This document shows, piece after piece, positions 36,800 to 59,936 of a DNA stretch of 64,000 nt (positions are counted from its first letter, which is position 1; each line of letters begins with the position of its first letter). Both the position numbers and the translations under genes were made by a program. The stretch covers positions 247,380,001 to 247,444,000 of the forward strand of contig CM097882.1 in the NCBI GenBank assembly GCA_044892505.1, given 5' to 3'. A model generated the notes under the pieces. It worked only from the letters and a program-made list of their open reading frames with translations, made no database searches and had not been told where the DNA came from. The DNA is from Schmidtea nova (lineage: Eukaryota).

Positions 36800-38345
36800 G
36801 ATTCCAAAACGATGCTGAATTTTATAATAGTTACAATTTACATCAATAATTAATCATAGTAAATGTTATCTCTCATCGTGATTCCTCTATTATTTGCCTT
36901 CCCCTTAGACCTTAGCTGAAATCAAGAAAAAACTGTTGTTTGTTACAGTATGCATTACTCTCGTATCTACTTAGATTTATCTGTTTATGATCAATTTGAT
37001 AGACGAAAAAATGATGATTTGTCTGCTTGGATTTTCAAAATATTGGTACCTCAAAACGGAAACTCTCTCCCGTCATGTATCCCTAGTTTATTCGAAAAAA
37101 AAACGCTCTTTTGTACCAAACGCGGTCGACATAATTTTCCTAAGGTTTATTAGACGTTTATTAAACAGCGGCGCTATGGTGAGGGTGAAAAATTGTGCCT
37201 CCTCCCGGTTAACAACTTCTTTCATATCTTTAAGCTTTATCAAAAAATTCTCGTCCCCTCTGTAGCTAAAATGATCAGAAAATAATTTTCCGGATTTGTT
37301 GGGTGTCCCATGCGCAAGTCTCAACCACTACTGATAAAATTATGCTTTACTATTTATTACTTTACCGTGTGTGGAGCCCTCGAGCACCACGCCACGGACG
37401 GACACCTTGGGAACCTAAAGCTCCCAACGGCGCAAAATTAATATGATCATTATATATTTTAATGTTGAGTCCAATCACAATAACGTTTAATTCATATAAC
37501 AAATTTCAACACATGAATGCATAAACACATAAATAATTAGATCAATAGATAAATGACAAAGCAAATGACACAATCATGAATAAAATAATACAGAAACCAA
37601 AATACCTAATTCGTCTGGGTTTGCTTCGATCGGTTCGTCTAGAATTCAAAGTCTATTTGATTAGTGAGCTAAATTTTACACTCTCAACTGACGTTGTAAG
37701 ATTAGGTATTAAGTCTGTTTTATCCAAAGTCTGATCAGTATTTATACTGATCAGTCTGATCTAGACTGACCAATCGGATTTGGCCGATTTCATGGTGGGT
37801 TTTAATTATTGTTTTTGATTCTAATTAATTTTTATTTTTTTAGATTGTATTCTTCCTTGGAGGTCCGGGTTTCAAAAACAATTATTCAATAACAAGTACT
37901 TTTATTTGGTTTTAATTATTATTATTTGTATTTTATTTGTTTTTAGATGTCTCCTGGGCCCGTTAATATCTATAAATTCATTTATTTTTATTTATAGCTT
38001 GTACTTAGTTATTCTATATTTTTACTATATTATTCCTTTCTTTTAATAAATAAATATTCCCCTTTTTACCTTATTTTTCTCTTTTTTGTTTTAATTAATC
38101 TACTTTTATTTCATTTTTTTCTCTATTTGGCTGGCCCAACATCACTCGGGGACCCCTAAAATTGCGTCCCGCAATTAATTATACATTTACACCTATATCA
38201 TCATACATAAAAATTAAGCAGATAAATGTCAATTTACATATACACAAAGAATCACGTAAGGTGATAGATTTTATACGTAAGCACAAAGTCATATTATTGT
38301 TAAATGTAAGTGGATCATACATAAAGTGAATGTAATATATCAGTT

Positions 38346-38918
38346 TTACACAAGCTCTTTGATTTCATGATTGGTATTGGATTGGATAGGGGTTCTTTCG
38401 CTGATTGTTCGTAGTTCGTAGTGGCTTTGGATTCGGTTTAGGTGTTTTCTCATTCGCTTTTGGGTTCTGATGTCTTGTATTGTTGTTCGATTCAGGATGA
38501 CATGTTTTTGTTTTAAGATCTTCACTCGGTATGATGTTATGAGGATTGTGATCGCGATAATGGTCACGCTGAGTGCAAGGATTATTATAATTGCGATGAT
38601 CCATTTTTCTTGATATTCTATCTCTGCTTGGGCTAAGCTTTTTATGGGTTCTCGACCTTCTTTTAGGGTTTTTCTGATTGTTTTCAATTTGATTCGATGT
38701 TCATATAGGACCTGTTGAAATTTTTCATCGTTTGGGTTGTCTGATGTTATCTGTTGAAGTTGGGTGATTTCTTGTGTTGCTTCGCTGATTAGTTTATCTA
38801 GTTCTTGATAGGTTTTCTCGGGTAGGGCTCGTAGCTCCTTCTCTGTGAGTTGAAGATCTTCTCTTTGTAGGGTGATTGTTATTAGGTATAGGAATATCGG
38901 TATTCGGAGCTTTTTCAT
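38346..38918 (-). CDS. 190-aa predicted membrane protein (hydrophobic N-terminus, coiled coil, TM helix)
   Basis: N-terminus MKKLRIPIFLYLITITLQ; TM WIIAIIIILALSVTIIAITILITSY; basic tail. Confidence 0.75.
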   Translation of the reverse strand: MKKLRIPIFLYLITITLQREDLQLTEKELRALPEKTYQELDKLISEATQEITQLQQITSDNPNDEKFQQVLYEHRIKLKTIRKTLKEGREPIKSLAQAEIEYQEKWIIAIIIILALSVTIIAITILITSYRVKILKQKHVILNRTTIQDIRTQKRMRKHLNRIQSHYELRTISERTPIQSNTNHEIKELV

Positions 38919-39000
38919 ACTGTTTTCTTTACAGGTAGGTCAATACAATTTGATACTACATTTCATACAATTATTTACAAAAATATATTTTCCGCTTTAT

Positions 39001-40062
39001 TTACACAATCGTCTCGTTTGGTTCGTAGAAACCTTCGTCCTGAGGTTCTACCTGGTTCGTGGGGAGTGGTATCCAAACAACCCTGCTCCTCCACATTTCG
39101 ACTTCATCTCGATACATGTGAGATATCTGGATCTCCTCGTCCAGCAAATATTCTAGGTAATTTGCTTGTTCTGTTAATGTTTCTATTTGCTTCTCTAATT
39201 CGATTACTTTTGTCTTTTGTTCGTCTTCTTTCATCATTTTTGTTACGGCTGCCGTTGTACTTGTTTCTTTGGGTATTGCTAGTACTGTTACTCGTTTCTG
39301 TTTCAATTCTTCGTTTTCTTTCATCAAATTCGTTAAATTTTCCTCATAACTTTGCTTCGCTTCCTTTAACCTTTCTCTGGTTCTTTTTAGCTCTATTTTC
39401 TTCTGGGTAATCACTCCTTGATAACCATTTATATCTCTCTTCATCTCTTCTTCTTTCTGATTCCATATTCCGGTGAGCATAGATTTCAGTTGTTCTTGAT
39501 TAGCTAGTTCTTCTCCCATTCTTTGAACTTGATAGGTTAGTCCTTTAATTTTCTTTGCTTGTTCGCGGATAAATTGCTGTCTTTTTGTATTCCATCTTTT
39601 ATTTAACACTTCCTGGTTGATTTTTTGCTCTAACTCGTCTTTTAGTTCATCGATCTCTTTATATAACTTCCAATCATCACTATAATCTGTCCTTTCTATT
39701 ATTTCTCTAGCTTTTTCGTAAGATTCTTTCGCTTCTTTCTTCCAGTATCTTGCTTGTTCTGTAATCGAATACATCTTGTGTTCAGCTTCCATCTGCTGTC
39801 TGTCTCTTTCCTCTCGTCGCTCTTTCATCATTCTCTGGTAATATTCCTTTTGTTGTTGTAGCATTTTGTATACTTCTTCTATTTTTTCTCGACTTCTTTG
39901 ACTTGATCTTTCCGCTTCTTTTAATAATTCGGCTTGTCTCTCTATCTCCTCTTGCTTTCCATAATATGCATTGACCCATATTTCAATCTGTTCTAGATGA
40001 TCGCTAATCGCTTCTGCTTGATGCATCGTAATTTCCTGTAAGCATACTTCGATATTTCCCAT
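39001..40062 (-). CDS. 353-aa coiled-coil protein
   Basis: Long E/K/Q/R-rich heptad-like sequence; no catalytic motif recognised. Confidence 0.8.
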   Translation of the reverse strand: MGNIEVCLQEITMHQAEAISDHLEQIEIWVNAYYGKQEEIERQAELLKEAERSSQRSREKIEEVYKMLQQQKEYYQRMMKERREERDRQQMEAEHKMYSITEQARYWKKEAKESYEKAREIIERTDYSDDWKLYKEIDELKDELEQKINQEVLNKRWNTKRQQFIREQAKKIKGLTYQVQRMGEELANQEQLKSMLTGIWNQKEEEMKRDINGYQGVITQKKIELKRTRERLKEAKQSYEENLTNLMKENEELKQKRVTVLAIPKETSTTAAVTKMMKEDEQKTKVIELEKQIETLTEQANYLEYLLDEEIQISHMYRDEVEMWRSRVVWIPLPTNQVEPQDEGFYEPNETIV

Positions 40063-40178
40063 TGCTATAATTTCAAAAAAAAAATTTTTTAATCGGTTTA
40101 TATATCAGTTATTTTTTGTTTATATAATAATTTTTGGGTATTTAACTGTACATATTATTTACACGATCACTTCTCTTG

Positions 40179-41561
40179 TTACGTCAACCATTCTTTTCTA
40201 TCCGCTTTCTCATTCCTTTCCATTTCTATGTATAGGGTGTCTGCATATAATCGTTCCCATAGGCTTTCTTTCGTTATAAACATTGGTTCTCCCGCTGCTA
40301 ATCCACATTCTGTGGTTGGTTTCTCGCTCGTACTCGCATGTTTCTCTGTCTCAAAGAATTTTTCTACTGGTTTTGTTACATTTCTGATTCTAATGATGAC
40401 TCCTACTTTCAAGGGCCATTCTACTAGGTCGTCGTATTCTCCTTTACATAGCGAGAAAAATATTGACACATGTGTTCCTCGTCCTCTTCCGTCTCCATTT
40501 GGGTATAGCTTCAATCTCACTTTAGCTCCGTTTCTCCATAAATAAAATGGTGGGCTTATTACTGCTGTTTTCGTCATATTTCTGGCCTCTGTTAATTTGT
40601 TTCTAAAATCTGTCACTTTCCACACATAGGGTGCGATTGGTAACTTTTCCTCGGTATCCTGGGTGAGTTTGTTGTACTGGATTTTCATTCCTTTAGCCAA
40701 TTCTTCGATAGCTTTTATCTTTTCCTCCATCTTTTCTCGTGTTAGTTCGAATTGCTCTCTGGTTTCCAACAGTAGGTTTACCATTATCTTGTGTGACTCT
40801 ATTTCTCTTTCTAATTTTTTGATTGTTTGTTCGGTTTCTTTTGTTGCTTCGTTTGTCATTTCCGCATGCTTTAGCAATGCTTCCTCCAGATGTTGTTTCA
40901 TGGTTTTTTGCGTTCTTTTCTCCATACATCCCTGTTTGTTATAAGGACATTCCCTTGGTTTCTCCGTGCACACTTTCCAATGTTCTTGTAATTTTACTTC
41001 TACCGTTATCTCGCATTCGTTTGAACATATTCCTACATATTGTCTACATACTTTCTCCTCTTTTATATTCAGGTGTTCTTCTTCGATCTTTCTCCTCGTT
41101 TCTCGAGTTCCACAATATTCGCATAGACTTTCCTCTTCTTTACATTCATCTTTGTGCTGCTCTTTATTCTTTATAGTTATTTTTTGTTGGCATTTGTTAC
41201 ATTCAGTTCTCTTCTCTTCGCAGTTCTCCAGATGGTTCTCGAGATCGCGTATTTGTCCTTGCCATATACATGGTTGATTTATACATTCGGTTTTCGTGTT
41301 CATGATTTCTCTCTGAGTTGCTCTATCTGGTCCGGTTTCTTCGAATTTTATTTGACCTTCTTTGCATTCTGGACATTCTGGTGGTCTTTTCATACTTAAC
41401 TCGTGTATGCATTTGGTACATACTCTGCATCCGCATAGGGTTTGTCTTGGTTTCAATATTATGTTTTTACAATTTACACAAGTGAGTCTCAGACTCCATT
41501 TCCTGTTCTCGGCTCTCAAAATTTCGATTATCCGCTCTTCGGCTTTTCCTTCTGTATTCAT
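40179..41561 (-). CDS. TRAF: Full-length intronless TRAF-family protein (RING, TRAF zinc fingers, coiled coil, MATH/TRAF-C)
   Basis: RING CVNC..QTLCGCRVCTKC..CPEC. TRAF fingers such as CPYNKQGC..KQHL. MATH domain YVWKVTDF..SPPFY..KVRLKLYPNGDGRGRGTHVSIFF..GEYDDLVEWP. Confidence 0.95.
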   Translation of the reverse strand: MNTEGKAEERIIEILRAENRKWSLRLTCVNCKNIILKPRQTLCGCRVCTKCIHELSMKRPPECPECKEGQIKFEETGPDRATQREIMNTKTECINQPCIWQGQIRDLENHLENCEEKRTECNKCQQKITIKNKEQHKDECKEEESLCEYCGTRETRRKIEEEHLNIKEEKVCRQYVGICSNECEITVEVKLQEHWKVCTEKPRECPYNKQGCMEKRTQKTMKQHLEEALLKHAEMTNEATKETEQTIKKLEREIESHKIMVNLLLETREQFELTREKMEEKIKAIEELAKGMKIQYNKLTQDTEEKLPIAPYVWKVTDFRNKLTEARNMTKTAVISPPFYLWRNGAKVRLKLYPNGDGRGRGTHVSIFFSLCKGEYDDLVEWPLKVGVIIRIRNVTKPVEKFFETEKHASTSEKPTTECGLAAGEPMFITKESLWERLYADTLYIEMERNEKADRKEWLT

Positions 41562-41651
41562 TCTACAATGATATATACACTTGATTTGTTATCTATTTTT
41601 TGATTTTTCTTGTTTTTGTTTTACATATTTACAATTTTTCGCTTTATTTAT

Positions 41652-42008
41652 CTACGGCTCGTTTGTTGAATCTGGTTCTGGGTCGTTTTCTGATCTGTTT
41701 ATTGCCCAATTTGTCCATCCATCCTCTGCTTCTTCTGTCTCTCCCATTGTTAAACGGTCTATCTCTATTGCTTGTCTCTGATTTATGTCGCTCATCACTT
41801 GATTCTCTCTGGTAAGTTGCGTTATCAATCTCTGTTGCTCCTCGATTCTGTGGAGTTGTTCAAAACTATTATTATAACTTTCGGATAACAAATTCTGTTT
41901 CTCAATTAACTGATTTTGTAGTGAGTTGATTGTTCGTATTAACATGTCACACTGGGCTTTCCATCGCATAGCCATAGTAGTTTCTGCTATTTCTTCCTGT
42001 TCGTTCAT
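41652..42008 (-). CDS. 118-aa coiled-coil protein with an acidic tail
   Basis: ORF track; heptad pattern LIRTINSLQNQL..LTRENQ. Confidence 0.65.
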   Translation of the reverse strand: MNEQEEIAETTMAMRWKAQCDMLIRTINSLQNQLIEKQNLLSESYNNSFEQLHRIEEQQRLITQLTRENQVMSDINQRQAIEIDRLTMGETEEAEDGWTNWAINRSENDPEPDSTNEP

Positions 42009-42133
42009 TTTCTAAATTATATACATTAATCGTTTTCTCGATTTCTCTTTTTATATTTTTATAATATCGATACCCATACTATTACGGTAATGCATTGTTA
42101 TTTACACTATTATTTACAGTCATATCCCGCCTC

Positions 42134-43510
42134 CTATATCACCATCACTGTCTCTCCTTCGTATCGCTCTTCATCTTCTATTTGTCTCCAAAATTCTTTG
42201 CCTTTCGTCCTCCTTTGAAATTCTTTCTGTACTTCTTCCGGTAATTCTATACTGTAGTTCATAATCTTTATATCTGGCCAATGTGTTATTGGTTTCTTGT
42301 TGAATACATCATATATCCATATTATTAATAATACTGTTATTACTGGAATAGTTGCTGCTAGTATTCCCAGACCAATTAGTTCTCTAACTTGTTTGTTTAC
42401 GTCCATCTTCGTAATTTCACTCTGGTTAATCATTGGTCCGTATTGTCCCTTTAGTTTATTTAGTAGTTGTTCTCGTTCTTGTTGTTTTCTTTTAACTTCT
42501 TTAATTACTTCTTCCGGCGTCCATCTTGCGTAAGGGTCTATTACTACTTGTTCCGCGTCCATTTGTTTCGTTGTCTGACTTAATTCTTTAAATTCGAGTT
42601 TTCTCACTTTCCCTTTGGACGTTGAGTTTACCGGTGTGTAGTACGTTTCGCATCTTTCCTGCTGATTTCCTAATATGTCCGTCTTTTCTACCGCACATAT
42701 CTCGTATTCGCTATTGAATTTCAGATTTCTGATACTTATTTCCTCTTTTCCTTTCACGTTTCCACAGTCTCGTGGCTGTCTTTCCCTTTGTTTCTGAACT
42801 ATTACCCAACATATTTCTAACGTTTTATTGTCTATTCTCCATAGTATAAGAGTTGCTGTAGTATTCTTTTCGGTTCTTATTTGTATTTCTTGGTTTTTCT
42901 GTTGTCCATTAGGTTTAAAGGTAGTGGTATACCTCGTTTTTCCTTTGTTCCGTTGTCTTCTGCTTTTTCGCGTTGTCTTTCCAATTCTTGTTCTGGTGGG
43001 TGTTTTATATATTTTGCATTCCAGTTCATTTACTGTTATTTTGTCGCTCTTCCTGATCAGGCATATTTCGTACGTTTGATTACTTTCTAACCCTTCTATC
43101 TGTATTGTGGTTGTTCCTCTGTTTGTTCGACATTGCGGCGGTGTATTCTGGTTTGTTTTCTTTTCCTGCTTCTTCCAGCATACGCCTTTGACGTCCGGTT
43201 CCATTCCGGTTAACTCTAACATTATAGTTGTTCTCCGTTTGGTGCGTTTATTTCTTCTTCCTCGTCGTATGAACTTTATTGTTTCCCCAGGTTGAAATGT
43301 TTTACAAATTGTCGTTCCTTTCTTGTGTCTTTCTTTTTCTAGTAAACATAGTTCATACGTCCTGTCTGCTTTTACTTCTGATATCTTGGTTACTTTATTT
43401 GTTTTCCTTTTCCGACTCGTCTTTATTTCGCTTACGCCAATTTCTTCGTTGCTTCTGGCCCAACACTTTGGGTTGGTGTTTTGGGTGTCGTTCATCTCTG
43501 TTACTGCCAT
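42134..43510 (-). CDS. 458-aa membrane protein with three FN3-like repeats; in frame with the polyprotein
   Basis: Repeats ADRTYELCL..TICKT, GLESNQTYEICLI..ECKIYKTP and NLKFNSEYEICAV..RCETYYTP. TM LIGLGILAATIPVITVLLIIWIY. Confidence 0.8.
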   Translation of the reverse strand: MAVTEMNDTQNTNPKCWARSNEEIGVSEIKTSRKRKTNKVTKISEVKADRTYELCLLEKERHKKGTTICKTFQPGETIKFIRRGRRNKRTKRRTTIMLELTGMEPDVKGVCWKKQEKKTNQNTPPQCRTNRGTTTIQIEGLESNQTYEICLIRKSDKITVNELECKIYKTPTRTRIGKTTRKSRRQRNKGKTRYTTTFKPNGQQKNQEIQIRTEKNTTATLILWRIDNKTLEICWVIVQKQRERQPRDCGNVKGKEEISIRNLKFNSEYEICAVEKTDILGNQQERCETYYTPVNSTSKGKVRKLEFKELSQTTKQMDAEQVVIDPYARWTPEEVIKEVKRKQQEREQLLNKLKGQYGPMINQSEITKMDVNKQVRELIGLGILAATIPVITVLLIIWIYDVFNKKPITHWPDIKIMNYSIELPEEVQKEFQRRTKGKEFWRQIEDEERYEGETVMVI

Positions 43511-43543
43511 TGTGTCAATGTCTATCCCTTCTTCTAACCGTTT

Positions 43544-46500
43544 TCACATTGTTAATATGAGTGCTAAACATAGTAATTCTGCTTGGTAGGTCACTCTTTC
43601 AGTTTCATTTGTGGTTACTCTTACTTCGGGCCTGTCTATGGTAATTTGTATAGTTGGCGTTGTTCGTCTGTCTATTGTCTGATGTTTCTTGTTTTTTGTT
43701 CCTTGTGTCTCTGTTCTTCCACACTTTCTTACGACATAGTCTCCTTTGGATGACTGCTGTACTGTTATGGTTACTTTGGGTGTTAGGTAATTTGCACATG
43801 CAATTGTCTTATGTGATCTCGGATCCTTTGGTTTCCGAACGGTGCACATTCTGTACCAAGTATCTAGCTCTAAGTCATCGATCTCTATGATTTCTTGTTC
43901 ATATTCTGAGATCCTGCAATCCATTGGACTATTTTGTCCCGATATTTTGTCCTTTTTTGACCAACATACTCGTTCGATTCCTTTTGCGTTTCCAATTTGT
44001 ATTGTCGCTTTTTCTTCACATATCATTCCTTGAGTTGGACTAATTAAGGTCATGATTACCGTTAGTAATAATAGTTCTGGTTTAAAGAATGGGTTTATTG
44101 TTTGTTTGTAGCCTGTTCTTTTTACTTCGTTTTTATTTTTATAGTTGTTGTTTCTTTGTTTCCCAAATTCATTGTTCTTATCATTTTTCTCTGTGTCCCT
44201 TCCTTTCTCTTCACTGTCCTCTTTATCTGATAACTCATGATCCTCTGGATTTTCTCGAGTACTATCGTCGTCGTTTCCTGTATTGTCACCTCCCCTTTGG
44301 TCGTTGAAAATGTCGTCCTCGACATTAACTGCTTCTATCATTTTTTCATACGTTATGGTTGTGAGTATACTTGCTTCGTATTCTTGTGTTACTGCCTGCT
44401 TAGGTATTTCCTTATCGGTTAATTTACAATCTAGAATCTCTTTCTTGGCTTTTATCCAATTATTAAGGTACGTTTTCATTAGTTCTTTCCATTTGTCCGT
44501 ACGTTCTGTTTCCTTTGGGTTGTTTGTGAATCGTAAATCTTTTCTTCTCATGAAGATGTCTATTATCTTTGGCCATTTGTTTATTATTAATGCACACTTT
44601 ATATACAAATTTTGGCCTTGTTCCATGCACTCGTTGATCCTGAATGCTGGTTCATTGGTGTTTGGGTTCATCCAATTGAGTATTGCTTCAGTTAGTTCAG
44701 CGTTATGCATCATGGAATGTACGCTAGCTTTTTTAACTGTCCTTGTAAGGTATTCTATTTCCTCCTGATTTGTGATTGTTTTTATGAAATTTATCACCTC
44801 CCAATTGTGCGCTAACAACGCTACGTCTAGTATTGAGCTGTCTTTGTTAGTTCTTCCCATGAGTCCTGCACCTGCTTCGTACAGTTCCTGTAACACTCGG
44901 GTTTTTGTGTTCGCTCTTGCTGCGAATATCATGAGGGTATCTCCCTTTTTATCTTTCATGTTCATGTCACTTCCGCAATCTTGCATCAACCGTGCAATTT
45001 CGACTACCCTCCTATCTTTTCCTGCTCGTAAGGCTCTATGTATTGGCAATACTCCATTCTTTGTTAATAAGAAAGTCACTGGCATTTCTCTTTTTATGAT
45101 CATCATATCGTTTTCATTGTAAGTTCCTTCCGCATATGCGTGTACCTTTTCCACAATTGATCCGAGTATCTCCAGTGTATGTTTAGAATTCTCGAATTCT
45201 GGTAATAGTTCTTTTGCTTTGTCCTGTATCGCATCTAACCTTTCTTGATATGGTACCTCTGCGCTGAAAAGTGGTGTAAATTTCCTTTTGCTTTCTCTTT
45301 CCTTTCGACCTAGGAATTGTTTGCATTTTTCGGGGTGGTTTAATATGTCTACTAGTTTGTCATACTCTTCCTCCACCGTTTTGTACTTATCTTGAAAATT
45401 GGATATATCTTTGTAAGTTATCGACTTGGTTAGCGATTTTGCACACCATTCCCTAATTTTCCTGAATAATGCTTCTTTTTCGCTTTCGAATTTACACTCC
45501 TCTTTGTTTTTGGAAATTGTGATCTTTCTTCTGTCCAATAATATTAACAGTGTTTTCTGATCACAAACTAATTTTAATAGGAATTGAAATAACGCGTTTT
45601 GTCCTTTACTGTATACTTCGTTTATATTTAATACCCATGTATCATTTTCGGATCTTTTCCATTTTATTAGCTTGCGTATTGTTTTGCAGTTACCGATTTT
45701 TATTGCCTCCTTGATTATATCACCTTTGATCAGTTCGTCTATTTCCCAAGTGGCCTTCTCGATTATTTGTTTGAGCATTATCTGATTTGAGCTCCATATT
45801 GCGTGATTCAAGACTGTTTTGTTTTCTCTATCGCGTTCCGTCCAGTTGAAATCGGCATTTATCAAAAGGTCTATTATTGCTTTATCCGATTTGTAGATGG
45901 CTGCTACCATTAATGGTGTTTCTTGTTCGCTATTCCCAAAACCAAGGTGTTGGTTTGTTTCCTTAGCGATTTTTAGAAATTCTTTTACTCTCTCTACTTC
46001 TCCCCATTTTATGGCGTTATGTAATGCTGGTTGTCCTCCTATGTCTTCTAGTGAAAGTATTTCTGGAATCTTTTCCAGTAGTTCTGAAATGACTGGTTTT
46101 GTTGGTAGTCCCCTTGCGTAATCACTAATTATCGACTGAATATCTCTTAATATATCGTCTCTGACATGCCATTTTCCCATTATTTCTCTGGCTTTTAGTA
46201 CAATTTCCTTGTTTCTTTTTTCTCGTTGATTGTTCTCTGCTTCGGTACTTTCATTGGTTGCTCTGAGCATATTCATTCTGGCTGTCTGGGATCTGGTTAT
46301 TATTCGTTCTTCTGGCGCTGTGGTTATTGTCTTTGGTACTTTTTTACATCTGCATGTATTAACGTATATTGGTCGTATCAATGGTCGATTAACAAGTTTT
46401 ACCTTCACATTGTTTTCCTTTTTGTATATAACTTCGTAAGGGCCTTTTCCTGGTCTTTGTAGTTTTTTAACGGTTCCTGGTATTATTTCTGGGGTTTCTA

Positions 46501-52500: not shown

Positions 52501-55500
52501 CGATGGCGCTATGCAGTGATTTCGCCCTTTCGCTTATTTCATTTATTCTCCACCATTTCTTTAATTCCGGATCGATTATTGCCAGTATTTCCATTAACAT
52601 CTTTGATATCCATTCCTCGCCTTGGTATGTTTGTGTTGTTTCTTTTTCTTTCGTTACGGCTATTTTATTTAGTTTCTTTAGACACAAATCCCATTGATCC
52701 CGTCTTTTTTCCTCTCTTGATTTTATAACTACATTTGCTGGATCCATCTTGGGTCTACCTCTAGGTCGTTTATCCATTGTCGTGCCCGTTTCTACTAATC
52801 TTGTTTCTCGTCCAGTTTCTTCTGTGACGTCTCTTGGTTCATTGGCTCTTTCTTCTAACCATCTTTCCATTTCTTGTGTGAATTGTACGTTTTCTACATT
52901 TGCCCTCCTTGCTTCCTCTTCTGCTATTTCATTTACTTCTTCGATGATTATTTCTTGTTCAACTTCATCTTCGGTGTTGGTTACCGGTATTGCTGTTGGT
53001 AATTCCTGAATTCTTTCGAAAATATTATCATCTTTCTCTTTTGTTAGCTCTATTAACTCCTCTAACATATCATCGCTATCTGTAAAAATTTCGTCTACAT
53101 CGTATGGTTCTGGTGGTGTTCTTTCTCTTGTCTCTCTTGGTGTTGTTCTAGCTTGTTCTGAGCTTGTTCCTGGAGTCCTTACCGATTTCATTGGGCTCGG
53201 CGTACTCATACTTCCTTTTGGTTTCTTTTCCTCTTTCAATTTCAATGGTTGACCTGCTATTGCTGCTACTGTCAATGTATTTGCGATATCTAATTGCGCT
53301 GGCGTTATTCCAATTTCTAAGCTGTTATCTAATGATCGTCCTTGGTGTTGTAAATGGAATGGTGGTTCATATCTCAATTTCTTTTTAATGTCTCGAACTT
53401 TCTCCGCTATCCCTACCCAAAACTCTTCCTTTTCTTGGTTCGGATATACTATTCTTAGGTGTACTTTCTGTGGCGATTCCTGCGAGAATTCTTGGTTTCT
53501 CCATTTTTTAATTACGTGATCCAATTGTTCTGGACACCACTCGTTAACTCTTTTGTATTCGGCGATTGCTTTTGCTACTTTACGCAAGCATGTTATGTCT
53601 TCTCCATTAACTACGAAAAAATCTGCGAGACCTTTTACTACTTTTCTCTTGCCGTGCGCATTGGTTTTTAATATTTCGACAAATTCTTCCGTTTTTTGTT
53701 TTTCTCTTTCCAACCACATGGTTGTCGTTTCTGGTCCGTCTAAATCTGCTGGCATGGCTTTTCTTGTTACCATACAGACTCTTCCGGTTTCCGGTTTGTG
53801 ATCGTCTTCTATGCCTATTCCGTATTCCTCTTCGTATTCGCCTGCTTTTGGTTCCCAACATTTTCCTCGTTCGTTCCATTGTTTTTCTACAGGTGTTCGT
53901 AATCGTCTGTTGAGATTGAGTTCTTCTAATACATCTTCCCATTCTGGCCAAATCCGCCAATTTCGATAAATGTCTACTATTTGTTGTAATTTATGCACAA
54001 CTTCTTTTTGTCGTTCCCGTTCTCTTTTCTCATCCTTAGCAGTTTCTCTTGGTGTATCGTCCATTCTGATAACGTGGATGGTTTGGTGATTATCCCATAT
54101 ACCAATTTTATATAGCCGTCTTTCATCGTGATCCCATAATACATGTTCGTTGTATTTCATGATTATGTCATCTTCCCATTCTTCTTCTGGTTCTCTTTGT
54201 AATAGTGTCTCGTTGATGACATTTACTAATTCTTTTATGGTACAATCTGCTACCACTTCAATTTCTTTGGTATCCTCATTAGGTAACTCTACTGCAATTT
54301 TCAGATCTGTTATTTTCCCTTGTCTGAACATTGCTTTTCCCATTTTTGCAATTACTTTTCCGTATGAGATCTGTGACCATCTCGTGTGACTTGTGTCACG
54401 TATGCATTCGATACATCGTTTCAACTTTTCGTATTCGCTTCTCATTAACTCCTTTCTATGTTTTTTGATTTGTGGGATGATTTGTTCTATCATGGAATTT
54501 AGATTTCCTCGTAAGATTCGTCCTTTCTCATATTCTAACCGTGGTTTTATCTTCCTCTCGAAACACATATTTGCTTCTTTTGCTACTTCTTGTAGGTTCT
54601 CTTCTCTCTTATCATCGCATATCGATAATGTTGTCACCTCTCCTGGCCATATGCCTGTTTCTATCAAATGCGTCCTTTTCTTCACTAGTCCATTCTGTGA
54701 ATAGAGGAATTTGTTTTTATATGAACTCCCTAATCTGTCTTCCACCCATTGATAAATATCTTCCGTGAGTGGAGTTTTGATCCAAATCCTTGGCAAACAT
54801 GTTTTTATCTCTATTAGGATTATATATTCATGGAGTGGTTCTTTTAATAATTTTCCTACGTATTGGCTTAGTGTTTCTACTTCCCGGCCTGGTAACCACT
54901 CTTTATAGTTCATTTGTAATATTGCTCTCATGAATTTTCTATAGTGTTTCTTGTCAATGAATTCCTCATTATATATTACTTCTAGCGTATTATCTAATAA
55001 TTTCTGGATCTCGTCTTCTTTTACTTGAATAGTTTCTGGTGTCTTTACTACTTCTATCTTTTTGTCTTCAATTTCCGGTTCGTCTAGCATGTCCCCTGCT
55101 AGACTACTGACGTCACTATCCTCTTCATCGTCTGAAAAATTCTTTGCCTGGCCTCTCAACATGTTAATGTGTTTTATCTGGTTAATTTCACTTGGTGTAT
55201 TTTCCGTTGGTCTTGTTTCACTTTTAATAGCTTTTTGTGTTGATTCACTCTTGTCGTCTACTACTTCGACCTTTCTCAATTTTCGTTCTAACTCGTCTAT
55301 TTCTCCCAACCGTCTTCGTATCATTTTCCCTTTAAATATTCGACTGATTCGTGTTTCGTGACGCACTGGCGATGGAATTCCTTCTGGTTCTATTTCCTTG
55401 ATTACCATCACATTTCTTTTTGTCTCTACTACTCCCATGTTTTCCCATGTATCCGTTAGTTTCAATTTTACTTCTGGTGCACCTTCTATTTTTAGGAATG

Positions 55501-57523
55501 CTTCTCTGGGCAGTTTCGTTACTCCTGGAGCCATTTCATTCACTTTATTGAACAATATTTCTACTTCTTCCTTTATGTTATATTGGAATCGAAACACGTG
55601 CTTGTTTGGCAAAATTACCATCATTCCTCTTTTCCCGAGTTTCCTTTTCTCTTCTTGGTTCCCTTCTTTTTCTACTTCCTTTTCTGTTTCTTTTTCTGCT
55701 TCTTCATCTTCTTGTATTATCTCTTTTCGGCCTTCGTTGTTGGTTGGATTTGGGTTTGTTGGATTTATTTCTGGTACAGTCTCTTTCTCGTGGGTATTTG
55801 TTTGATTGGTTGCTCTCATCATATTAATTCTTAGAGGTTGTCGTTCTCTTTCTTGCTGTTTTTGTTCCTCTTCTCTTTGTATTCTTGCCCATTCCTGAGC
55901 ATGTCGTGCTTGACTTTCCCGATTCAATCGTTCGTTTTCGCTTTCTATTTTTCTCATCATATTGATTTGTTGTTGACCTGTTTGCGGATTTCCTCTGGTT
56001 GTATTGTTTATCAGCTCCGTCAATCTTTGGACCTCTTGCATTAAATGTATCTCTTTAGTGGTATTTTTATTTTGGTTATTATTATTACTATTTGGTTGGT
56101 TTCCGTATTCCGGTTGGTTTCCATTATTTGGCTGATTTCCATAATTCTGTCGGTTTCCACCAGTTGGTTGGTTGCCATAGTTTTGTCGGTTTCCGGTATT
56201 CTGCCAGTTTCCTCGTTGATTGCTTCTTTGTCCGCAATTTCTTGATAGGTGTCCAGGCCGTCCACAATTAAAACAGGTTATTGTGTAACATCTGCTCTCT
56301 GAATGCCCTTTTACTCCACATTTTCCACAATTCAAGTTCTGATAACATTCTTGTTGCCAATGTCCCAATTTCCCACATGTTTTGCATTGTTTCGTTGGTC
56401 CTTGGGGGTTGTAATTGTTTTGATTTCCGTAATTTGATACTTTATTCCCTTCATTCCTTCGTTGCGGTGGTGGTCGGTTTAATTGTTGTGAATTTGGAAT
56501 GTGGTTATTCAGGTTCACTTCTTGTTCGTTTTGTGCTGTATCCATAGCTAAATAGATTCTACCATCATTTCCTATCATGTGTAGTTCAAATCTATTAGCT
56601 GTTTCTAGTGCTTGGTCGATGGTTTTACAACCTTGACATCCAACTTGCGCTCTTATGTCGGGTCTTCTTAATCCTCCCACAAAGATAGCTGCCATTAACT
56701 CCTCATTTATTGGGCTGTCTTGATTAAAGATCAACTTTGCTAACTTTTTCAATTCGCTTGCATATACCGCATTCGATTCATTTATCTTTTGTTTCCTCAT
56801 TGAGAATTCCGTGAATGCCTCATTCAATACTTTATTTATTCCAAAGGTTTGTTGGAAAAAGTCCTTTATCGCTGACCAACTTGTAGGTGGATTAGTTCCA
56901 TTCTTTGCTTCCAAATATAGATCTAATGCGCTATCTTTCAAATATAGCTGAATTCTGCTTACAGTTGTTTCTGGTTTCCACTTGCATACTTCCACGAATA
57001 TGCCAAATTCCTTTAAGAAAGTTTCTAATTTACTCGCATCTCCATTAAACGGTTCTCCGGAAAATTTGTCTTTTATCTCTTCTCTTGGTTCACTCATTTC
57101 GATTCCGCTGTCTGTAGTTATTTTACTTTCGTTTCCTCTTGTTTCTAGTTCACTGTTAGGTTCGTCACTTGAATTTCGGTCGATCTCAGTTTCCTTTGCT
57201 GATTCGTTATCTGATGCTTTACTATCGTTATCGGTGTCGTCACTTTCTGTTTCTTGTTCTACTTCGTCTTCTATTTCTTCTATATAATCGTTGTTGGTTT
57301 TGTCGACTTCTATTTCACTTATTGGGTTTCTCTCGGGTTCTGCTTGATTTTCTTTGTTGCTTGAACTGTTGCTTGTTACTGATAATTTATCGTTTTCGAT
57401 AATCGACTTTTGTATTATTATCTGCCTTGCTTTACTTCCTTTTGGGCCTTTCTGATTATTATTCTTGGTAGCTTTATTCTTTTCTGCTGGTTTTATTATG
57501 ACACTCTTTTCTCCTTTTCTCAA
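43544..57523 (-). CDS. 4,659-aa Gag-accessory-Env-Pol-accessory polyprotein
   Basis: One uninterrupted frame with CCHC x3, DTG protease, YIDD RT, TDASG RNase H and HHCC/DDE/GPY integrase, plus the extra domains listed separately. The track start is TTG; the first ATG is at 57097. Confidence 0.96.
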   Translation of the reverse strand: MRKGEKSVIIKPAEKNKATKNNNQKGPKGSKARQIIIQKSIIENDKLSVTSNSSSNKENQAEPERNPISEIEVDKTNNDYIEEIEDEVEQETESDDTDNDSKASDNESAKETEIDRNSSDEPNSELETRGNESKITTDSGIEMSEPREEIKDKFSGEPFNGDASKLETFLKEFGIFVEVCKWKPETTVSRIQLYLKDSALDLYLEAKNGTNPPTSWSAIKDFFQQTFGINKVLNEAFTEFSMRKQKINESNAVYASELKKLAKLIFNQDSPINEELMAAIFVGGLRRPDIRAQVGCQGCKTIDQALETANRFELHMIGNDGRIYLAMDTAQNEQEVNLNNHIPNSQQLNRPPPQRRNEGNKVSNYGNQNNYNPQGPTKQCKTCGKLGHWQQECYQNLNCGKCGVKGHSESRCYTITCFNCGRPGHLSRNCGQRSNQRGNWQNTGNRQNYGNQPTGGNRQNYGNQPNNGNQPEYGNQPNSNNNNQNKNTTKEIHLMQEVQRLTELINNTTRGNPQTGQQQINMMRKIESENERLNRESQARHAQEWARIQREEEQKQQERERQPLRINMMRATNQTNTHEKETVPEINPTNPNPTNNEGRKEIIQEDEEAEKETEKEVEKEGNQEEKRKLGKRGMMVILPNKHVFRFQYNIKEEVEILFNKVNEMAPGVTKLPREAFLKIEGAPEVKLKLTDTWENMGVVETKRNVMVIKEIEPEGIPSPVRHETRISRIFKGKMIRRRLGEIDELERKLRKVEVVDDKSESTQKAIKSETRPTENTPSEINQIKHINMLRGQAKNFSDDEEDSDVSSLAGDMLDEPEIEDKKIEVVKTPETIQVKEDEIQKLLDNTLEVIYNEEFIDKKHYRKFMRAILQMNYKEWLPGREVETLSQYVGKLLKEPLHEYIILIEIKTCLPRIWIKTPLTEDIYQWVEDRLGSSYKNKFLYSQNGLVKKRTHLIETGIWPGEVTTLSICDDKREENLQEVAKEANMCFERKIKPRLEYEKGRILRGNLNSMIEQIIPQIKKHRKELMRSEYEKLKRCIECIRDTSHTRWSQISYGKVIAKMGKAMFRQGKITDLKIAVELPNEDTKEIEVVADCTIKELVNVINETLLQREPEEEWEDDIIMKYNEHVLWDHDERRLYKIGIWDNHQTIHVIRMDDTPRETAKDEKRERERQKEVVHKLQQIVDIYRNWRIWPEWEDVLEELNLNRRLRTPVEKQWNERGKCWEPKAGEYEEEYGIGIEDDHKPETGRVCMVTRKAMPADLDGPETTTMWLEREKQKTEEFVEILKTNAHGKRKVVKGLADFFVVNGEDITCLRKVAKAIAEYKRVNEWCPEQLDHVIKKWRNQEFSQESPQKVHLRIVYPNQEKEEFWVGIAEKVRDIKKKLRYEPPFHLQHQGRSLDNSLEIGITPAQLDIANTLTVAAIAGQPLKLKEEKKPKGSMSTPSPMKSVRTPGTSSEQARTTPRETRERTPPEPYDVDEIFTDSDDMLEELIELTKEKDDNIFERIQELPTAIPVTNTEDEVEQEIIIEEVNEIAEEEARRANVENVQFTQEMERWLEERANEPRDVTEETGRETRLVETGTTMDKRPRGRPKMDPANVVIKSREEKRRDQWDLCLKKLNKIAVTKEKETTQTYQGEEWISKMLMEILAIIDPELKKWWRINEISERAKSLHSAIAPILPELIKEKTRSNHLDWQGTTMLIKKLTEGAETDNKYLIAMAYTIYNLLTLSRGRLKPTALERHIKNTAKIIEKEIEPYIISKGGWETFTKTNQKKNQAKNMKKKFEEILGELEKEKSGTGNGKSSLNLSSIIMMMLIWMISTDGATAFEVFDCDQMALGEKYSLRGTEQCKDATPTELKTLKKRQLYHVYQEAELIRTMVRECKVYKTRFAFYCGHRHYSAIVMPGTERESVMLQGEDCEKLFKHGEVETRDRVKIRGKTGVILQQTYYVAGAITGGEGYCQGATYPIFGVAATNLVVIDTYTVELKTYEAFFDPTTGEMKTLPMCKIESNTCQTGMSTLTYQIRGKECQLQLLKEAEFDEIQGKTFQEEEEDEAARGKILQDTVRGEKKIETRTQEKQIKMRNTPTVLITSDADIGMRFVKGKTALKCGVAMLETNYPGIFVSKQEVPSAKRKVHTNDVKLHLYMNNKMDFLFHRGQASLQKVYYDLINNDCILNREILKTKLAVAITNPDSAMPLLPLREGHFGRVVGEVMYVYICKKTNAKVATMTKLQPGQCTNELEIEYKGKVRYVQPVTRIINPVSFEPNPFNCSNAYGPLYQKPDGNWVMFPSRTEVPAPREFELMQLSKGRKFKDVDVSNMGFYSAKDLEAARQNILFPARREAVLSSIVTITGGTNYQGGPNYELLLSPAHFKKATENMMKAMWGRFLIFGQMMAGILGVILIIQIIRVIITQMLACFDIYKREKKVNWKLVVGFLPFLAKTMVLHGHSKDIHRIKRLLKILAKMKGTDEEVGRKFKKIMNNEQARQQLKKERKGLWERMKGYRTQDDSSDDDDDDNEGGQVFKNQVPQYVEKNPAEMWKCYAPPPTMYQEPTPGMRQNTMQMMPMTNIYPMIPEDYRTRRCRSVDPQGDSHTIAVMSSNTGPVLTTTIEINGREIEAMIDTGANISAIDIKWIPQEQRRDIERTNVHVIACSKEVVEVAGRWWVKIKHQNTEIETYVAVIPALSVPCIIGTDLMPALFKEIVIDLGTMRLKDRTGQICAIEAKVTSSKQIIVPARREKICFVKIDPTIEGDMIFEPSKRFEKRKSLPMARGLVSANDNGEIPITVVNFDEEDKIIYENERLGKLTPMMDIEIPIKEGVKEEEPTWNIDSQLLNEDQKKQLERLLIEYKDIFAASDLDLGTCDVTLHTIPLTDETPIALRPYKLAEAQKSVAEAEVQKMLDAEVIEPSCSPWQFPVVMVKKKDGTQRFCIDYRRLNAVTKRDTYPLPDINEMLLTLQGAAYFTSLDLKSGYWQIKMKEEDKEKTAFTIGRDLYQFRKMPFGLTNAPASFQRCMNFVTHGIKQCMVYIDDLLIYSSTFEQHIQDIRDVFVRLRQWKLKLKPSKCDWAKEKVTFLGHIVSAKGKEPDPRNIDKVKECPVPKTITQIQEFLGLCGYYRKFIKDYAGIAKPIQELVKKDVSFIWGSEQQTAFETLRDKLITAPILVHPDFKKPFLLATDASGYAAGAVLGQYDDEGKERVIGYYSRTFKKHEKNYSVTEREALAIILAIKHFKYLLWGHVICITTDHQPLVWLGQHKETSSRLMRWAMQLQEYSPDIKFKSGKANANADCMSRLTFPELTDPEVQRICIMIAEDLDFSELKKDQQEDKELRPIIEFLSSRNMDVFKDNAELKEHMRKYQHRYTIEKGWLLIRDGEKRLMCLPGNRRKEIITQYHDGKLGGHMSDKKTLNRMRQKYYWPTMDEDVKEWIKNCLTCATRKDSGKKWKNPLKPMPIPAEPMTTIAMDVIGPLPESLNGNQYILVITDYLTKFPEAFAMPDQKAKTVARILVEEICCRYGTPKQILTDQGTNFMSEILDEVTNYFRIAKLRTSPYHPQTNGQTERFNGTLIRMLSNYVSKHQTDWDEYIKLCLMAYRMSIHAATKLSPFQLMYGRECNMPIDLEYQPPLSQYMEEDDYVTKFKERMQEIWKTAELNIKFYQESYKDLHDQKKNVKTNDLKPGDWVMIETPEIIPGTVKKLQRPGKGPYEVIYKKENNVKVKLVNRPLIRPIYVNTCRCKKVPKTITTAPEERIITRSQTARMNMLRATNESTEAENNQREKRNKEIVLKAREIMGKWHVRDDILRDIQSIISDYARGLPTKPVISELLEKIPEILSLEDIGGQPALHNAIKWGEVERVKEFLKIAKETNQHLGFGNSEQETPLMVAAIYKSDKAIIDLLINADFNWTERDRENKTVLNHAIWSSNQIMLKQIIEKATWEIDELIKGDIIKEAIKIGNCKTIRKLIKWKRSENDTWVLNINEVYSKGQNALFQFLLKLVCDQKTLLILLDRRKITISKNKEECKFESEKEALFRKIREWCAKSLTKSITYKDISNFQDKYKTVEEEYDKLVDILNHPEKCKQFLGRKERESKRKFTPLFSAEVPYQERLDAIQDKAKELLPEFENSKHTLEILGSIVEKVHAYAEGTYNENDMMIIKREMPVTFLLTKNGVLPIHRALRAGKDRRVVEIARLMQDCGSDMNMKDKKGDTLMIFAARANTKTRVLQELYEAGAGLMGRTNKDSSILDVALLAHNWEVINFIKTITNQEEIEYLTRTVKKASVHSMMHNAELTEAILNWMNPNTNEPAFRINECMEQGQNLYIKCALIINKWPKIIDIFMRRKDLRFTNNPKETERTDKWKELMKTYLNNWIKAKKEILDCKLTDKEIPKQAVTQEYEASILTTITYEKMIEAVNVEDDIFNDQRGGDNTGNDDDSTRENPEDHELSDKEDSEEKGRDTEKNDKNNEFGKQRNNNYKNKNEVKRTGYKQTINPFFKPELLLLTVIMTLISPTQGMICEEKATIQIGNAKGIERVCWSKKDKISGQNSPMDCRISEYEQEIIEIDDLELDTWYRMCTVRKPKDPRSHKTIACANYLTPKVTITVQQSSKGDYVVRKCGRTETQGTKNKKHQTIDRRTTPTIQITIDRPEVRVTTNETERVTYQAELLCLALILTM
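43780..44082 (-). other. Polyprotein domain: internal signal-like peptide plus FN3-like domain
   Basis: PELLLLTVIMTLISPTQG|MICEE followed by IDDLELDTWYRMCTVRK..IACANYLTP. Confidence 0.65.
44770..45065 (-). other. Polyprotein domain: ankyrin repeat cluster 2
   Basis: NGVLPIHRAL..GSDMNMKDKKGDTLMIFAA..GAGLMGRTNKDSSILDVAL. Confidence 0.85.
45640..46055 (-). other. Polyprotein domain: ankyrin repeat cluster 1
   Basis: GGQPALHNAIKWG..EQETPLMVAA..RDRENKTVLNHAI. Confidence 0.85.
46340..47420 (-). other. Polyprotein domain: integrase (HHCC, DDE, GPY/F)
   Basis: YHDGKLGGH..CLTC; IAMDVIGPL; LTDQGTNF; NGQTERFN; GPYEV. Confidence 0.96.
47680..49060 (-). other. Polyprotein domains: reverse transcriptase and RNase H
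   Basis: KKDGTQRFCIDYRRLN, LDLKSGYWQI, MPFGLTNAPASF, YIDD (48449-48460), TDASG, ERE and TDHQPL. Confidence 0.97.
49400..49730 (-). other. Polyprotein domain: aspartic protease
   Basis: IEAMIDTGANISAI (DTG at 49667-49675) and IIGTDLM. Confidence 0.93.
50200..52110 (-). other. Polyprotein domain: envelope glycoprotein of the chuvirus G / herpes gB-like type
   Basis: Signal-like IIMMMLIWMISTDGATA|FEVFDC. Cys-rich ectodomain with C..YCG, DCILNR..LAV..NP, GEVMYVYIC and CTNELEIEYKG..PVTRI. TM FGQMMAGILGVILIIQIIRVII. Family assignment is by motif recall. Confidence 0.8.
52222..52620 (-). other. Polyprotein domain: Bcl-2-like
   Basis: BH2-like IEPYIISKGGWETF (cf. Bcl-xL LEPWIQENGGWDTF); divergent BH1-position LDWQGTTML; helical context. 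Confidence 0.6.
52749..52772 (-). other. Polyprotein motif: AT-hook
   Basis: KRPRGRPK matches the HMGA AT-hook core. Confidence 0.6.
53265..55630 (-). other. Polyprotein region with 3-4 ubiquitin-like domains
   Basis: About 53265-53467 HLRIVYP..KVRDIKKKL..FHLQHQGRSLDN..GI..TLTV. About 54068-54302 IAVELP..EIEV..TIKEL..MKYNEHVL..L.KIGI..TIHVI. About 54615-54830 ..DRLG..FLYSQNG..ETGI.PG..TLSI. A weaker candidate lies at about 55395-55630. Confidence 0.65.
56234..57070 (-). other. Polyprotein domains: Gag capsid-like region and three CCHC knuckles
   Basis: FNGDASKLETFL..IFVGGLR; CKTCGKLGHWQQEC, CGKCGVKGHSESRC and CFNCGRPGHLSRNC. Confidence 0.93.
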
Positions 57524-58077
57524 CGGGATTACTTTTGTATACTCAATTTTCCTGTCTTATCGTGTTCCGATTCTTTTCTTCCTTAGTTGATTGGTTTGGT
57601 TTGATTGATTTATCTAAAATACAAATGTCACTTCAACGATACTCTATTGTTATCGTTGCGCTTTTATTCCCTTTTTACGGGACTTCTCATTACTGGGTTT
57701 CTATTATTTTTCCCCATTCCCAGATTCCCCTTTATTTAAGTCTATTTAAATTATCTATATACTAGTCACAATTATCTATTTAGTCATAACAATTATCTAT
57801 CGGTTATTAAAATACATCAATTATTTTTCCCGCGGTCTCCCAATTTATTTGTCGTTCGAACGCTCTAATTCCCTGAGTCATTTGACTCGATTATTATTTT
57901 TTCATCTCTTTATCTTTCTCTCTGCTAGCCTCTAATTATTAATTCTGCCGGTCTTTCCGGTCAGCTCCTATTTCTCGATTCTACTTGCATGCATTATTTT
58001 AGGTCGCATAATCAGCTTTACTCGCATTTCTCTATTATCGGTGCGCACTATTCTCATTATCGTCGACGATCACAACT

Positions 58078-58697
58078 CTGGGCCTATATTCCCTCTGTTG
58101 TTATTTCTTATCACTTGCAACCCTGGGCCTATATTCCCTCCGTTGCTACTCAAACGATTGTAACCCTGGGCTTATATTCCCTCCGTTACTATCTTCCTTT
58201 AATTTTAAATAATTGCAACCCTGGGCCTATATTCCCTCCGTTGCTACTCAACAATTGTAACCCTGGGCCTATATTCCCTCCGTTACTATATATCCGGATA
58301 TCCCTATTGGCTCCTTTGGCCTCTAATTAATATCAATTATCTCAAATGGCTCTTATGGCCTCAAATTCATATCTCAATTATCTTAAATGGCTCTATTGGC
58401 CTTAAATTCATATCTCAATTATCTCAAATGGCTCTATTGGCCTTAAATTCATATCTCAATTATCTCAAATGGCTCTATTGGCCTTAAATCATATCTCTCA
58501 ATAACGCCTAGCTAGGTCATTCAATATGGCTCTTTGGCCTCAACCCTTTGTTTCAAGGGACAAACCGCTGATAACCCTTTGTTTCAAGGGACAACCTCTA
58601 ATAACCCTTTGTTTCAAGGGACAAACCGCTGATAACCCTTTGTTTCAAGGGACAAATTCTAATAACCCTTTGTTTCAAGGGACAAACCGCTGATAAC
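58078..58697. repeat. Three adjacent tandem arrays upstream of gag
   Basis: 5x CTGGGCCTATATTCCCTCCGTT core (58078-58290); about 4x 41-bp TCTCAAATGGCTCTATTGGCCTTAAA (58310-58490); 5x CCCTTTGTTTCAAGGG at 58544, 58575, 58605, 58636 and 58666. Confidence 0.92.
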
Positions 58698-59171
58698 TTT
58701 TCCTTAACCGGTTAATCGTAATTCTTAACTTCGCTAGCGACTACAATTTCTCAGCTGAGTTCTCTCAATTTCATGCGAGCTGATTATGCACCTCTTATTT
58801 TTCTCTATAATTCCTCGATTCTTTGTTTTATTACTAATTCTTTCGCTGATCAGTCATAATTCAATTTTTATTATTTTCTCTGCGCGCATCTTACCTCCTC
58901 AGGGTTTTCCCTATTTCTCTCCCCAACCAAAATATACAAAAAGATCGCGTTGGTCTACTAATGCGGGATGTGGTGATCAATCACATCACAAAAGCTTTCC
59001 AACATTTGCGATTGGCCCCTTTCTATATACCCCGAGTGGGTTGATCAACTGGTACCTCCCAATGGGTGCTTAACGGACTACTTGACAGTAGCTCAAAAAT
59101 TAATTAACATTGTTGATTGCTCCCTTGACTTTGTCATTCGATACAATATATTAACACACTCTAAATATTTA

Positions 59172-59633
59172 TTATAAATAAACTACAATTTTATCAGCTA
59201 CAGAGAAATTGCACATGGGGCACTCATCACACTTATTCGCACAGTTTTTACAGAATCGAAAATGTCCACATGGCAAAAACATTATTTGGATTTCACTGTC
59301 TTCGCATATGTAACATTGTTTATATTGTTTTGCTGCCTCGACCCCTTGCGACATCCATCGGTTATATGTTAGACTTAACTGCTGTTCTATATGTCGGCAT
59401 CTGATATTCAACTCGGCATCCTCTAATCGTGCTTTGTACCATTTATATCGCGTATTTATATCGAGTTTATTTACTTTCTCTATGATTTTTATTAACTCAG
59501 TTGTTTCCTCAGTTTGTGTCGTAGGTTCCTCATATTCGGATGCTCTTATTCGGGTTATTTTTTCGCAGACTGTCTCAAATGTATCGTTCTCGGTGTTGAA
59601 AAATTCTTCGATTTCTTTCAGTTTTTCCTCCAT
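59172..59633 (-). CDS. 153-aa protein with a C-terminal IAP/MDM2-type RING finger
   Basis: CYIC..IMFLPCGHFRFCKNCANKCDECPMC..KIVVYL at the extreme C-terminus. No BIR motif seen. Confidence 0.85.
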   Translation of the reverse strand: MEEKLKEIEEFFNTENDTFETVCEKITRIRASEYEEPTTQTEETTELIKIIEKVNKLDINTRYKWYKARLEDAELNIRCRHIEQQLSLTYNRWMSQGVEAAKQYKQCYICEDSEIQIMFLPCGHFRFCKNCANKCDECPMCNFSVADKIVVYL

Positions 59634-59936
59634 TTCCTAGATAATTTATTTAATTACTGTGTTAATATTATTCGAAAAGTAGTACTGTGTTTCGTTTTCG
59701 ACAGTTTATAGCCTCCCCCCGTGTTTCGGTAAATTGTCGTCCCGACCTGTTATTTATGAATGCATTTGTTCAATTTATCTACTAATTTGTTTTAATTCTC
59801 TGTTTGTAATTATCTATTTCCACGCAACTCACTTTTATCTCGATTACTCTTTCGGTTACTATTTCTACTCACAAAATTCTTATTTTAAATTTCTCTGTTG
59901 TCATTGGGTTCGCATTTTCGCATAAAAACAAAGTTG

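Follow-up and report, generated by a model that had tools for sequence, protein, structure and literature searches.

The window analyzed here is a stretch of 64,000 nucleotides from Schmidtea nova (assembly GCA_044892505.1, contig CM097882.1, positions 247,380,001 to 247,444,000). On its minus strand lies a 28.3-kb long terminal repeat (LTR) element with an internal region of 21.8 kb, in which YAG triplets just upstream of accessory start codons likely serve as 3' splice sites for the host spliceosome. The TG...CA LTRs, a target duplication, a primer-binding site and the order protease (PR), reverse transcriptase (RT), RNase H (RH), integrase (IN) place the element in Ty3/Gypsy. It is a young Ty3/Gypsy element of the Burro/GYPSM1 type, the Burro assignment being made by comparison with the published description. 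The two LTRs show zero differences across 3246 compared bases, and a 4-bp target duplication, CAAA, flanks the element. Hereafter, family A is the family of the window element; family D is a sister family (loci L019-L023, 30-55% protein identity); families B and C are smaller and contain the same fusion domain.

Read along the minus strand, the element consists of an LTR with two open reading frames (ORF-a and ORF-b, 158 and 194 amino acids [aa]), the primer-binding site, a RING ORF, a tandem-repeat block and the polyprotein, followed by ORFs of 458, 118, 460 (TRAF-like), 353 and 190 aa and the second LTR. AG ranks in the list refer to the host splice-site matrix described below.

59961..63207, minus strand: 5' LTR, TG...CA; two ORFs lie in it, together with the predicted promoter, leader exon and first intron
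36323..36799 (5' copy 61389-61865), minus strand: LTR ORF-a, 158 aa; no Pfam match
35422..36012 (ORF in 5' copy 60488-61072), minus strand: LTR ORF-b, 194 aa, with candidate acceptor TCTTCAG (36012; 61078 in the 5' LTR), top of 17 spacer AGs; homologue in family D
59938..59960, minus strand: primer-binding-site-like sequence, adjoining the 5' LTR; identical sequence in family D
59172..59637, minus strand: RING-finger ORF, 153 aa, with candidate acceptor TATCTAG (59637), top of 22 AGs; AATAAA overlaps the stop
43544..57097, minus strand: polyprotein, 4517 aa; Pfam matches to Gag with zinc knuckle, mononegavirus-type fusion glycoprotein, PR, RT, RH, IN and ankyrin
42134..43510, minus strand: 458-aa frame, the C-terminal piece of the polyprotein, cut off by an in-frame stop in the window copy
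41652..42012, minus strand: 118-aa ORF with candidate acceptor AATTTAG (42012), top of 7 AGs
40179..41563, minus strand: TRAF-like ORF, 460 aa, with candidate acceptor ATTGTAG (41563), top of 5 AGs
39001..40065, minus strand: 353-aa ORF with candidate acceptor ATTATAG (40065), top of 5 AGs
38346..38920, minus strand: 190-aa ORF with two hydrophobic stretches and a weak candidate acceptor AAAACAG (38920), worst of 4 spacer AGs
34895..38141, minus strand: 3' LTR, content as in the 5' LTR

The fusion glycoprotein (PF24664, aa 1935-2276) lies in frame between gag and protease and the ankyrin match at about aa 3700, while MATH occupies its own ORF. BIR and BCL2-like domains had no Pfam match at E<=0.05 in the element proteins, in a scan that did not comprise profile-profile search. 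The 458-aa ORF was rejected as a separate cassette: nine of ten family loci, and family D, read open across the stop at 43546, and where the frame continues the polyprotein reaches ~5.0k aa. Matches to the element in its own genome are 96-100% identical (40 scored of 734 candidates). The nearest long proteins of equal layout show 48-52% identity across RT-IN, and no relatives were confirmed among viral contigs. Between RING and Gag we also noted three tandem-repeat blocks (31-, 41- and ~45-nt units; window 56056-58700, minus strand, mainly 58056-58700).

YAG triplets upstream of accessory start codons

The preliminary description had proposed that accessory start codons follow a YAG at 1-5 nt, and every context it quoted is present at its position on the minus strand: CTAG and 3 nt before the ATG at 59633, TTTAG and 3 nt before 42008, TGTAG and 1 nt before 41561, TATAG and 2 nt before 40062, ACAG and 1 nt before 38918, TTCAG and 5 nt before 36006, and a TTCAG 15 nt upstream of the ORF-a ATG at 36799. 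A YAG thus lies 1-5 nt upstream of the ATG in six of seven accessory ORFs (binomial p=0.002), and T-N-Y-A-G precedes the ATG in five of the seven against a background of ~6-6.5% (binomial p=2e-5); the window sizes for both tests were picked after the data were seen. For comparison, 22% of non-coding positions have a YAG that ends 1-7 nt upstream, as do 26% of the 355 element ATGs with a purine at -3. The count excludes the 458-aa ORF at 43510 (AG 11 nt away), since it forms the in-frame end of the polyprotein. The reading of YAG as an upstream stop codon for reinitiation was rejected, since several sites carry CAG.

To score these sites we used a matrix from 12 host myosin genes, built on 29 of 60 candidate junctions, mostly of 45-60-nt introns; T occupies position -5 in 19 of the 29. 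The top-scoring AG was the pre-ATG site in five of eight spacers and ATTTTAG (57614) in the spacer before Gag, that is, in six of eight altogether. With this matrix, seven window sites outscored non-coding YAGs (p=0.003), as did ten sites from other copies and families (p=0.0002). The -15 site of ORF-a ranked 4th of 46 AGs.

Conservation points the same way. In family D, a YAG lies 1-7 nt upstream of six out of six first ATGs: CAG at 3 nt for RING, TAG at 6-7 nt for the 118-aa homologue, TAG at 1 nt for TRAF, CAG at 1 nt for the 353-aa homologue, CAG at 2 nt for the 190-aa homologue, and TAG 5 nt before the ATG of an LTR ORF with no match to ORF-a. A seventh fits only if the ORF-b homologue starts at its second ATG. 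At RING and the 353-aa ORF, TAG and CAG are exchanged between A and D with the signal kept. In families B and C, TTTTAG lies 6 and 3 nt, respectively, before the single accessory ORF. It is very probable that these triplets are genuine 3' splice sites. We also noted that family-D LTRs exist both with (L019, L022) and without (L023) the two internal ORFs.

A predicted LTR leader and an intron-less genomic copy

A predicted promoter and first exon lie within the LTR.

62806..62812 (3' LTR copy 37740-37746), minus strand: TATA box with upstream ATTGG; the start would lie ~25-30 nt downstream
62672..62785, minus strand: predicted non-coding leader exon (5' end estimated)
61870..62671 (3' LTR copy 36804-37605), minus strand: predicted 802-nt intron, bounded by donor AG|GTATTT and a point 4 nt short of the ORF-a ATG

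The TATA context is kept in four diverged subfamily copies and in family D, and all five family-A leaders (113-254 nt) are ATG-free. The donor is predicted at 62672|62671 and ranks 5th of 255 GTs with the host matrix. AG|GTA lies ~100-135 nt downstream of the TATA box in A and D (AG|GTAATT, ~100 nt from the matching TATA, in D), and four diverged A copies retain the donor despite differences in leader length and sequence. A second donor candidate, at 58894, was discarded; it is not kept in D and no spliced copy of it was found.

After the donor had been predicted, the genome was searched for the end of the leader followed by a non-G base. Among 69 LTR matches, 67 continued with GT, none with G and a non-T base, and two with a non-G base. 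These two are the two LTRs of a single integrated element with its own 4-bp target duplication (loci L024, L025, L101, L139); both lack exactly the predicted 802-nt intron, the leader being joined to the base 4 nt upstream of the ORF-a ATG, and elsewhere the copy and the window share ~99% identity where they align. The window copy itself has no AG at -4, its nearest YAG ending at 36815. The corresponding position was readable in 19 of 20 LTR regions and held a YAG in six (TTTTAG in three near-identical copies, CTAG or CCAG in three diverged ones). Since six copies carry an AG at the junction, the fossil corresponds to an AG-bearing copy that has lost exactly the segment from GT to AG, and it is best read as the reverse transcript of a spliced RNA. 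A GT donor precisely joined to a YAG acceptor was found for ORF-a only, in the form of this genomic copy.

We propose that a short non-coding leader exon in the LTR would be joined to alternative acceptors just upstream of each accessory ATG. Cis-splicing from this leader is well supported for the first cassette; by extension, the same donor would also serve ORF-b, RING, Gag-Pol and the four 3' cassettes, and internal AATAAA signals may terminate some accessory mRNAs. That one LTR leader is spliced in cis to all acceptors is, judged from the sequence, somewhat better than an even bet. RNAs spliced to acceptors past the primer-binding site could not be copied, so that Gag-Pol would be translated from a molecule other than the packaged genomic RNA. 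A donor upstream of the primer-binding site would explain how spliced RNAs are excluded from the replication of a 28-kb element with eight extra ORFs. Of the earlier proposals, subgenomic splicing gained support from the conserved LTR donor, the host-like acceptors and the precise intron-less copy, the support being direct for the first LTR ORF only; the idea that each cassette has its own spliced mRNA is supported for that ORF by the genomic copy and is an extrapolation for the others.

Several observations weigh against a single leader serving every site. The donor and the 3' cassettes are separated by 20-24 kb that contain four other acceptors and several AATAAA signals, and families B and C appear to use an internal promoter instead. 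The family-D leader holds one ATG, and the family-D Gag site reads AAG. The site at 38920 is weak in A (15th-45th percentile) and middling in D, and the host matrix derives from one gene family, with 29 of 60 junctions kept and a few possibly misplaced. At the fossil acceptor, 13 of 19 readable copies, the window included, have no AG. Only a single splice, that of ORF-a, has a genomic fossil: no spliced genomic copies were found at the family-B donor, the family-D donor or the second family-A donor candidate. Such copies are not expected for splices past the primer-binding site, because these remove the primer-binding site. The search for spliced copies in B and D gave five matches, all rejected: one point variant, one related element and three unrelated places.

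The fossil junction also has TTAG at both ends, and a microhomology deletion would yield an identical junction. This belongs to a reading in which the 3' YAGs are not spliced at all but reflect start-codon context, in which reinitiation or leaky scanning gives access to the cassettes, and in which the intron-less copy is such a deletion; the weak 38920 site fits it as well. However, TTAG occurs 12 times between the donor and the LTR end, only one of ~13 possible end points falls before ORF-a, and the missing segment runs from exactly the previously predicted donor to 4 nt upstream of a real ORF. Moreover, ATGs with a purine at -3 have a YAG at only the 26% given above (TNYAG, 6.5%), and the TAG/CAG swaps preserve the signal. 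We regard this explanation as very improbable.

Alternatives for the downstream cassettes and Gag-Pol

Same-strand ORFs ~100 nt apart, each with an acceptor near its ATG, are also typical of flatworm spliced leader (SL) operons (PMC8629364 and PMC12582326, excerpts). Those operons are described for host genes; here the carrier is a retroelement, and SL use is only a candidate. There is nonetheless a fair-sized minority chance that two systems are in use, the LTR leader serving the first genes and the host SL cutting the 3' array, perhaps also Gag-Pol, out of a 25-kb transcript. Under this arrangement, which we hold to be possible and the less probable one, the LTR ORFs would be cis-spliced and the cassettes past the primer-binding site released operon-like: cleavage at an upstream poly(A) signal would leave a donor-less RNA, to which the host SL would be added at the YAG ~100 nt on. 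The stop-to-ATG spacers of 125, 90, 116 and 82 nt in A, and similar ones in D, are near the ~100-bp peak in the spacing of trans-spliced neighbours in Macrostomum (PMC8629364, excerpt). AATAAA lies within ~60 nt of five of eight stops in A and six of eight in D (background 0.20), but at different stops in the two families; in A, such signals stand at 59173, 41648, 39001, 36292 and 35380. TGTAAA occurs in all eight spacers, mostly paired; it follows each stop in the spacers 42133-42009, 41651-41562, 40178-40063 and 39000-38919 and is kept in D, often with GCG(G/A)AAA. Its interpretation as a CFIm signal was dropped, as no UGUA upstream of planarian poly(A) signals is reported (PMC5068929, excerpt).

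The host SL system is active: the genome holds a Schmidtea-type spliced-leader exon, and 1180 matches to the SL 18-mer, with full leader followed by diverse coding sequence. An ATG often lies 1-7 nt past the leader (236 matches; control, 11). By eye, none among 100 listed of these 236 resembles the start of any accessory ORF from the four families, and in tblastn the accessory proteins matched none of 60 SL loci, which gave two pol matches only, both away from the junction. This negative is weak, because the listed matches represent only ~30 distinct starts. Also unfavourable is that the SL AUG would be in frame at some sites only (distances of 1, 2, 3 and 5 nt), and that a cis donor, apparently in use, lies upstream; in flatworms, a cis donor outcompetes the SL (PMC4558846, excerpt). 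In flatworms the two kinds of splicing, cis and trans, often use the same acceptors, though least of all in operons (PMC12582326, excerpt). C. elegans Cer1, likewise a Ty3/Gypsy element in an SL-using host, offers a precedent: its subgenomic RNA undergoes cis-splicing and, in part, SL1 trans-splicing (PMC3315495, excerpt). Cer1 differs in having one spliced product, an unspliced gag-pol mRNA and no tandem gene array. SL use, if true, would make this a rare retroelement organised as an operon; were Gag-Pol included, the genomic RNA would never be the Gag mRNA.

It is also conceivable, though improbable, that the 3' cassettes carry internal promoters, with the YAG belonging to the start region or to a short 5' untranslated region (UTR) intron. 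In the 400-nt spacer upstream of the accessory ORF, families B and C have ATTGG, a TATA-like box and GGTAAT in common, the 125-nt spacer of A and D contains a conserved TATAAAA, and the env genes of Oikopleura Tor3b/4b have an internal promoter (PMC4402516, excerpt). Yet spacers of 73-125 nt are too short for a promoter plus an intron. The A spacers contain no GGTA[AG] donor, the set of ATTGG/CCAAT, TATA and donor was not found in the 3' region of A, and no block of unusual synonymous conservation was seen between A and D. The spacer of B and C also holds a conserved small hairpin-like motif and may represent an internal promoter with a 5' UTR intron. The motifs TGTAAATA and GCGGAAA, which we take to resemble forkhead and E2F sites, would also fit internal promoters.

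For Gag-Pol, splicing from the LTR leader would lead to a site farther from the start codon.

57098..57614, minus strand: candidate Gag-Pol acceptor ATTTTAG (57614), best of 159 AGs between RING and Gag, with 516 ATG-free bases
58860..59090, minus strand: conserved non-coding block with a predicted long stem, highly conserved between A and D and inside the predicted Gag intron

The Gag ATG at 57097 has no close YAG; its candidate acceptor lies 516 nt upstream. Downstream of 57614 there is no ATG in 516 nt (6.7 expected), nor in the 483 nt of family D (7.1 expected). The Gag frame is open upstream without an ATG for 153 codons in A (window 57098-57556), 121 in D and 34 in B and C, and the extensions have peptide words in common within each pair (A/D, B/C). 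Near the start of the extension, all four families have ATT in an A-N-N-ATT-G context, which may be a non-AUG start. The SL AUG was considered as the Gag start and rejected: although the frame from the candidate acceptor would fit in both A (516 nt) and D (483 nt), in-frame stops follow in these two and in a second A copy. A 32-nt micro-intron ahead of gag in B and C is disfavoured, since the joined frame would contain an upstream stop. The stem at 58860..59090 (76 predicted pairs, three with changes on both sides, from three sequences only) could be a packaging or export element.

In overall design, the element resembles the giant Gypsy-like planarian elements Burro1-4 and GYPSM1, which combine multi-kb LTRs and a single polyprotein of 4.5-5k aa, its fusion glycoprotein in frame between gag and pol, with ankyrin repeats, TRAF/MATH cargo and accessory ORFs (PMC6431247). 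Section 7 of that work gives internal regions of up to 25 kb, more than 30 kb in the largest, and polyproteins of 4.9-5.1k aa; it contains nothing on the expression of accessory ORFs. Unlike in those elements, TRAF here is a separate ORF downstream of pol, and BIR and BCL2 lack a Pfam match. The use of one 5' donor near the cap with acceptors before downstream ORFs is shared with retroviruses and env-bearing Gypsy elements, for example Oikopleura Tor3a env (PMC4402516, excerpt). Here, by contrast with retroviral schemes, there are up to eight candidate acceptors across 24 kb, the donor lies inside the LTR and upstream of the primer-binding site, the LTR also contains two ORFs, and a spliced mRNA would be needed even for Gag-Pol. 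The subgenomic splicing schemes of HIV and foamy viruses are comparable.

The element type and subgenomic splicing are already known. No description of how Burro cargo is expressed was found in the literature searched, a set to which the primary Burro papers and supplements did not belong; that search, which likewise did not extend to Rossi 2014, also gave no published mention of the LTR-internal leader, the number of acceptors or the probably spliced Gag-Pol mRNA. Excerpts of PMC6880638 and PMC8532177 and the supplements of PMC7346339 hold nothing on the splicing of such elements. Planarian genomes contain many Burro-type elements, whose cargo includes TRAF, RING and ankyrin and whose RNA rises in PIWI-knockdown animals, and exact donor and acceptor coordinates make the question of cargo expression testable.

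A few further observations were made along the way. The SL 18-mer copies are dispersed genome-wide, many paired ~5 kb apart. In 30 SL loci that were read, the leader follows a common ~105-nt unit beginning TGGTCGCG, shortened in a few; in five of the 30 it comes directly after a purine tract, and in 22 the leader is complete to the ATG and is followed mostly by differing host-like coding sequence, not by GT. These copies look like a mobile element that captures SL-trans-spliced mRNAs, with the leader, speculatively, acting as a common strand-transfer sequence. Other TRAF loci examined (L140-L148) showed no Burro-like gene array. A large host TRAF/MATH gene cluster lies on C2 at 405-455 Mb, and the genes examined there are 24-33% identical to the element-type TRAF. 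Within the window, positions 1-1233 are an uninterrupted inverted copy of the repeat that was hit by the element insertion (compare 34165-34895 and 63207-63716), and positions 11573-16705 (minus strand) contain fragments of a Helitron-like Rep and Pif1 helicase, including a tandem duplication of 1133 bp.

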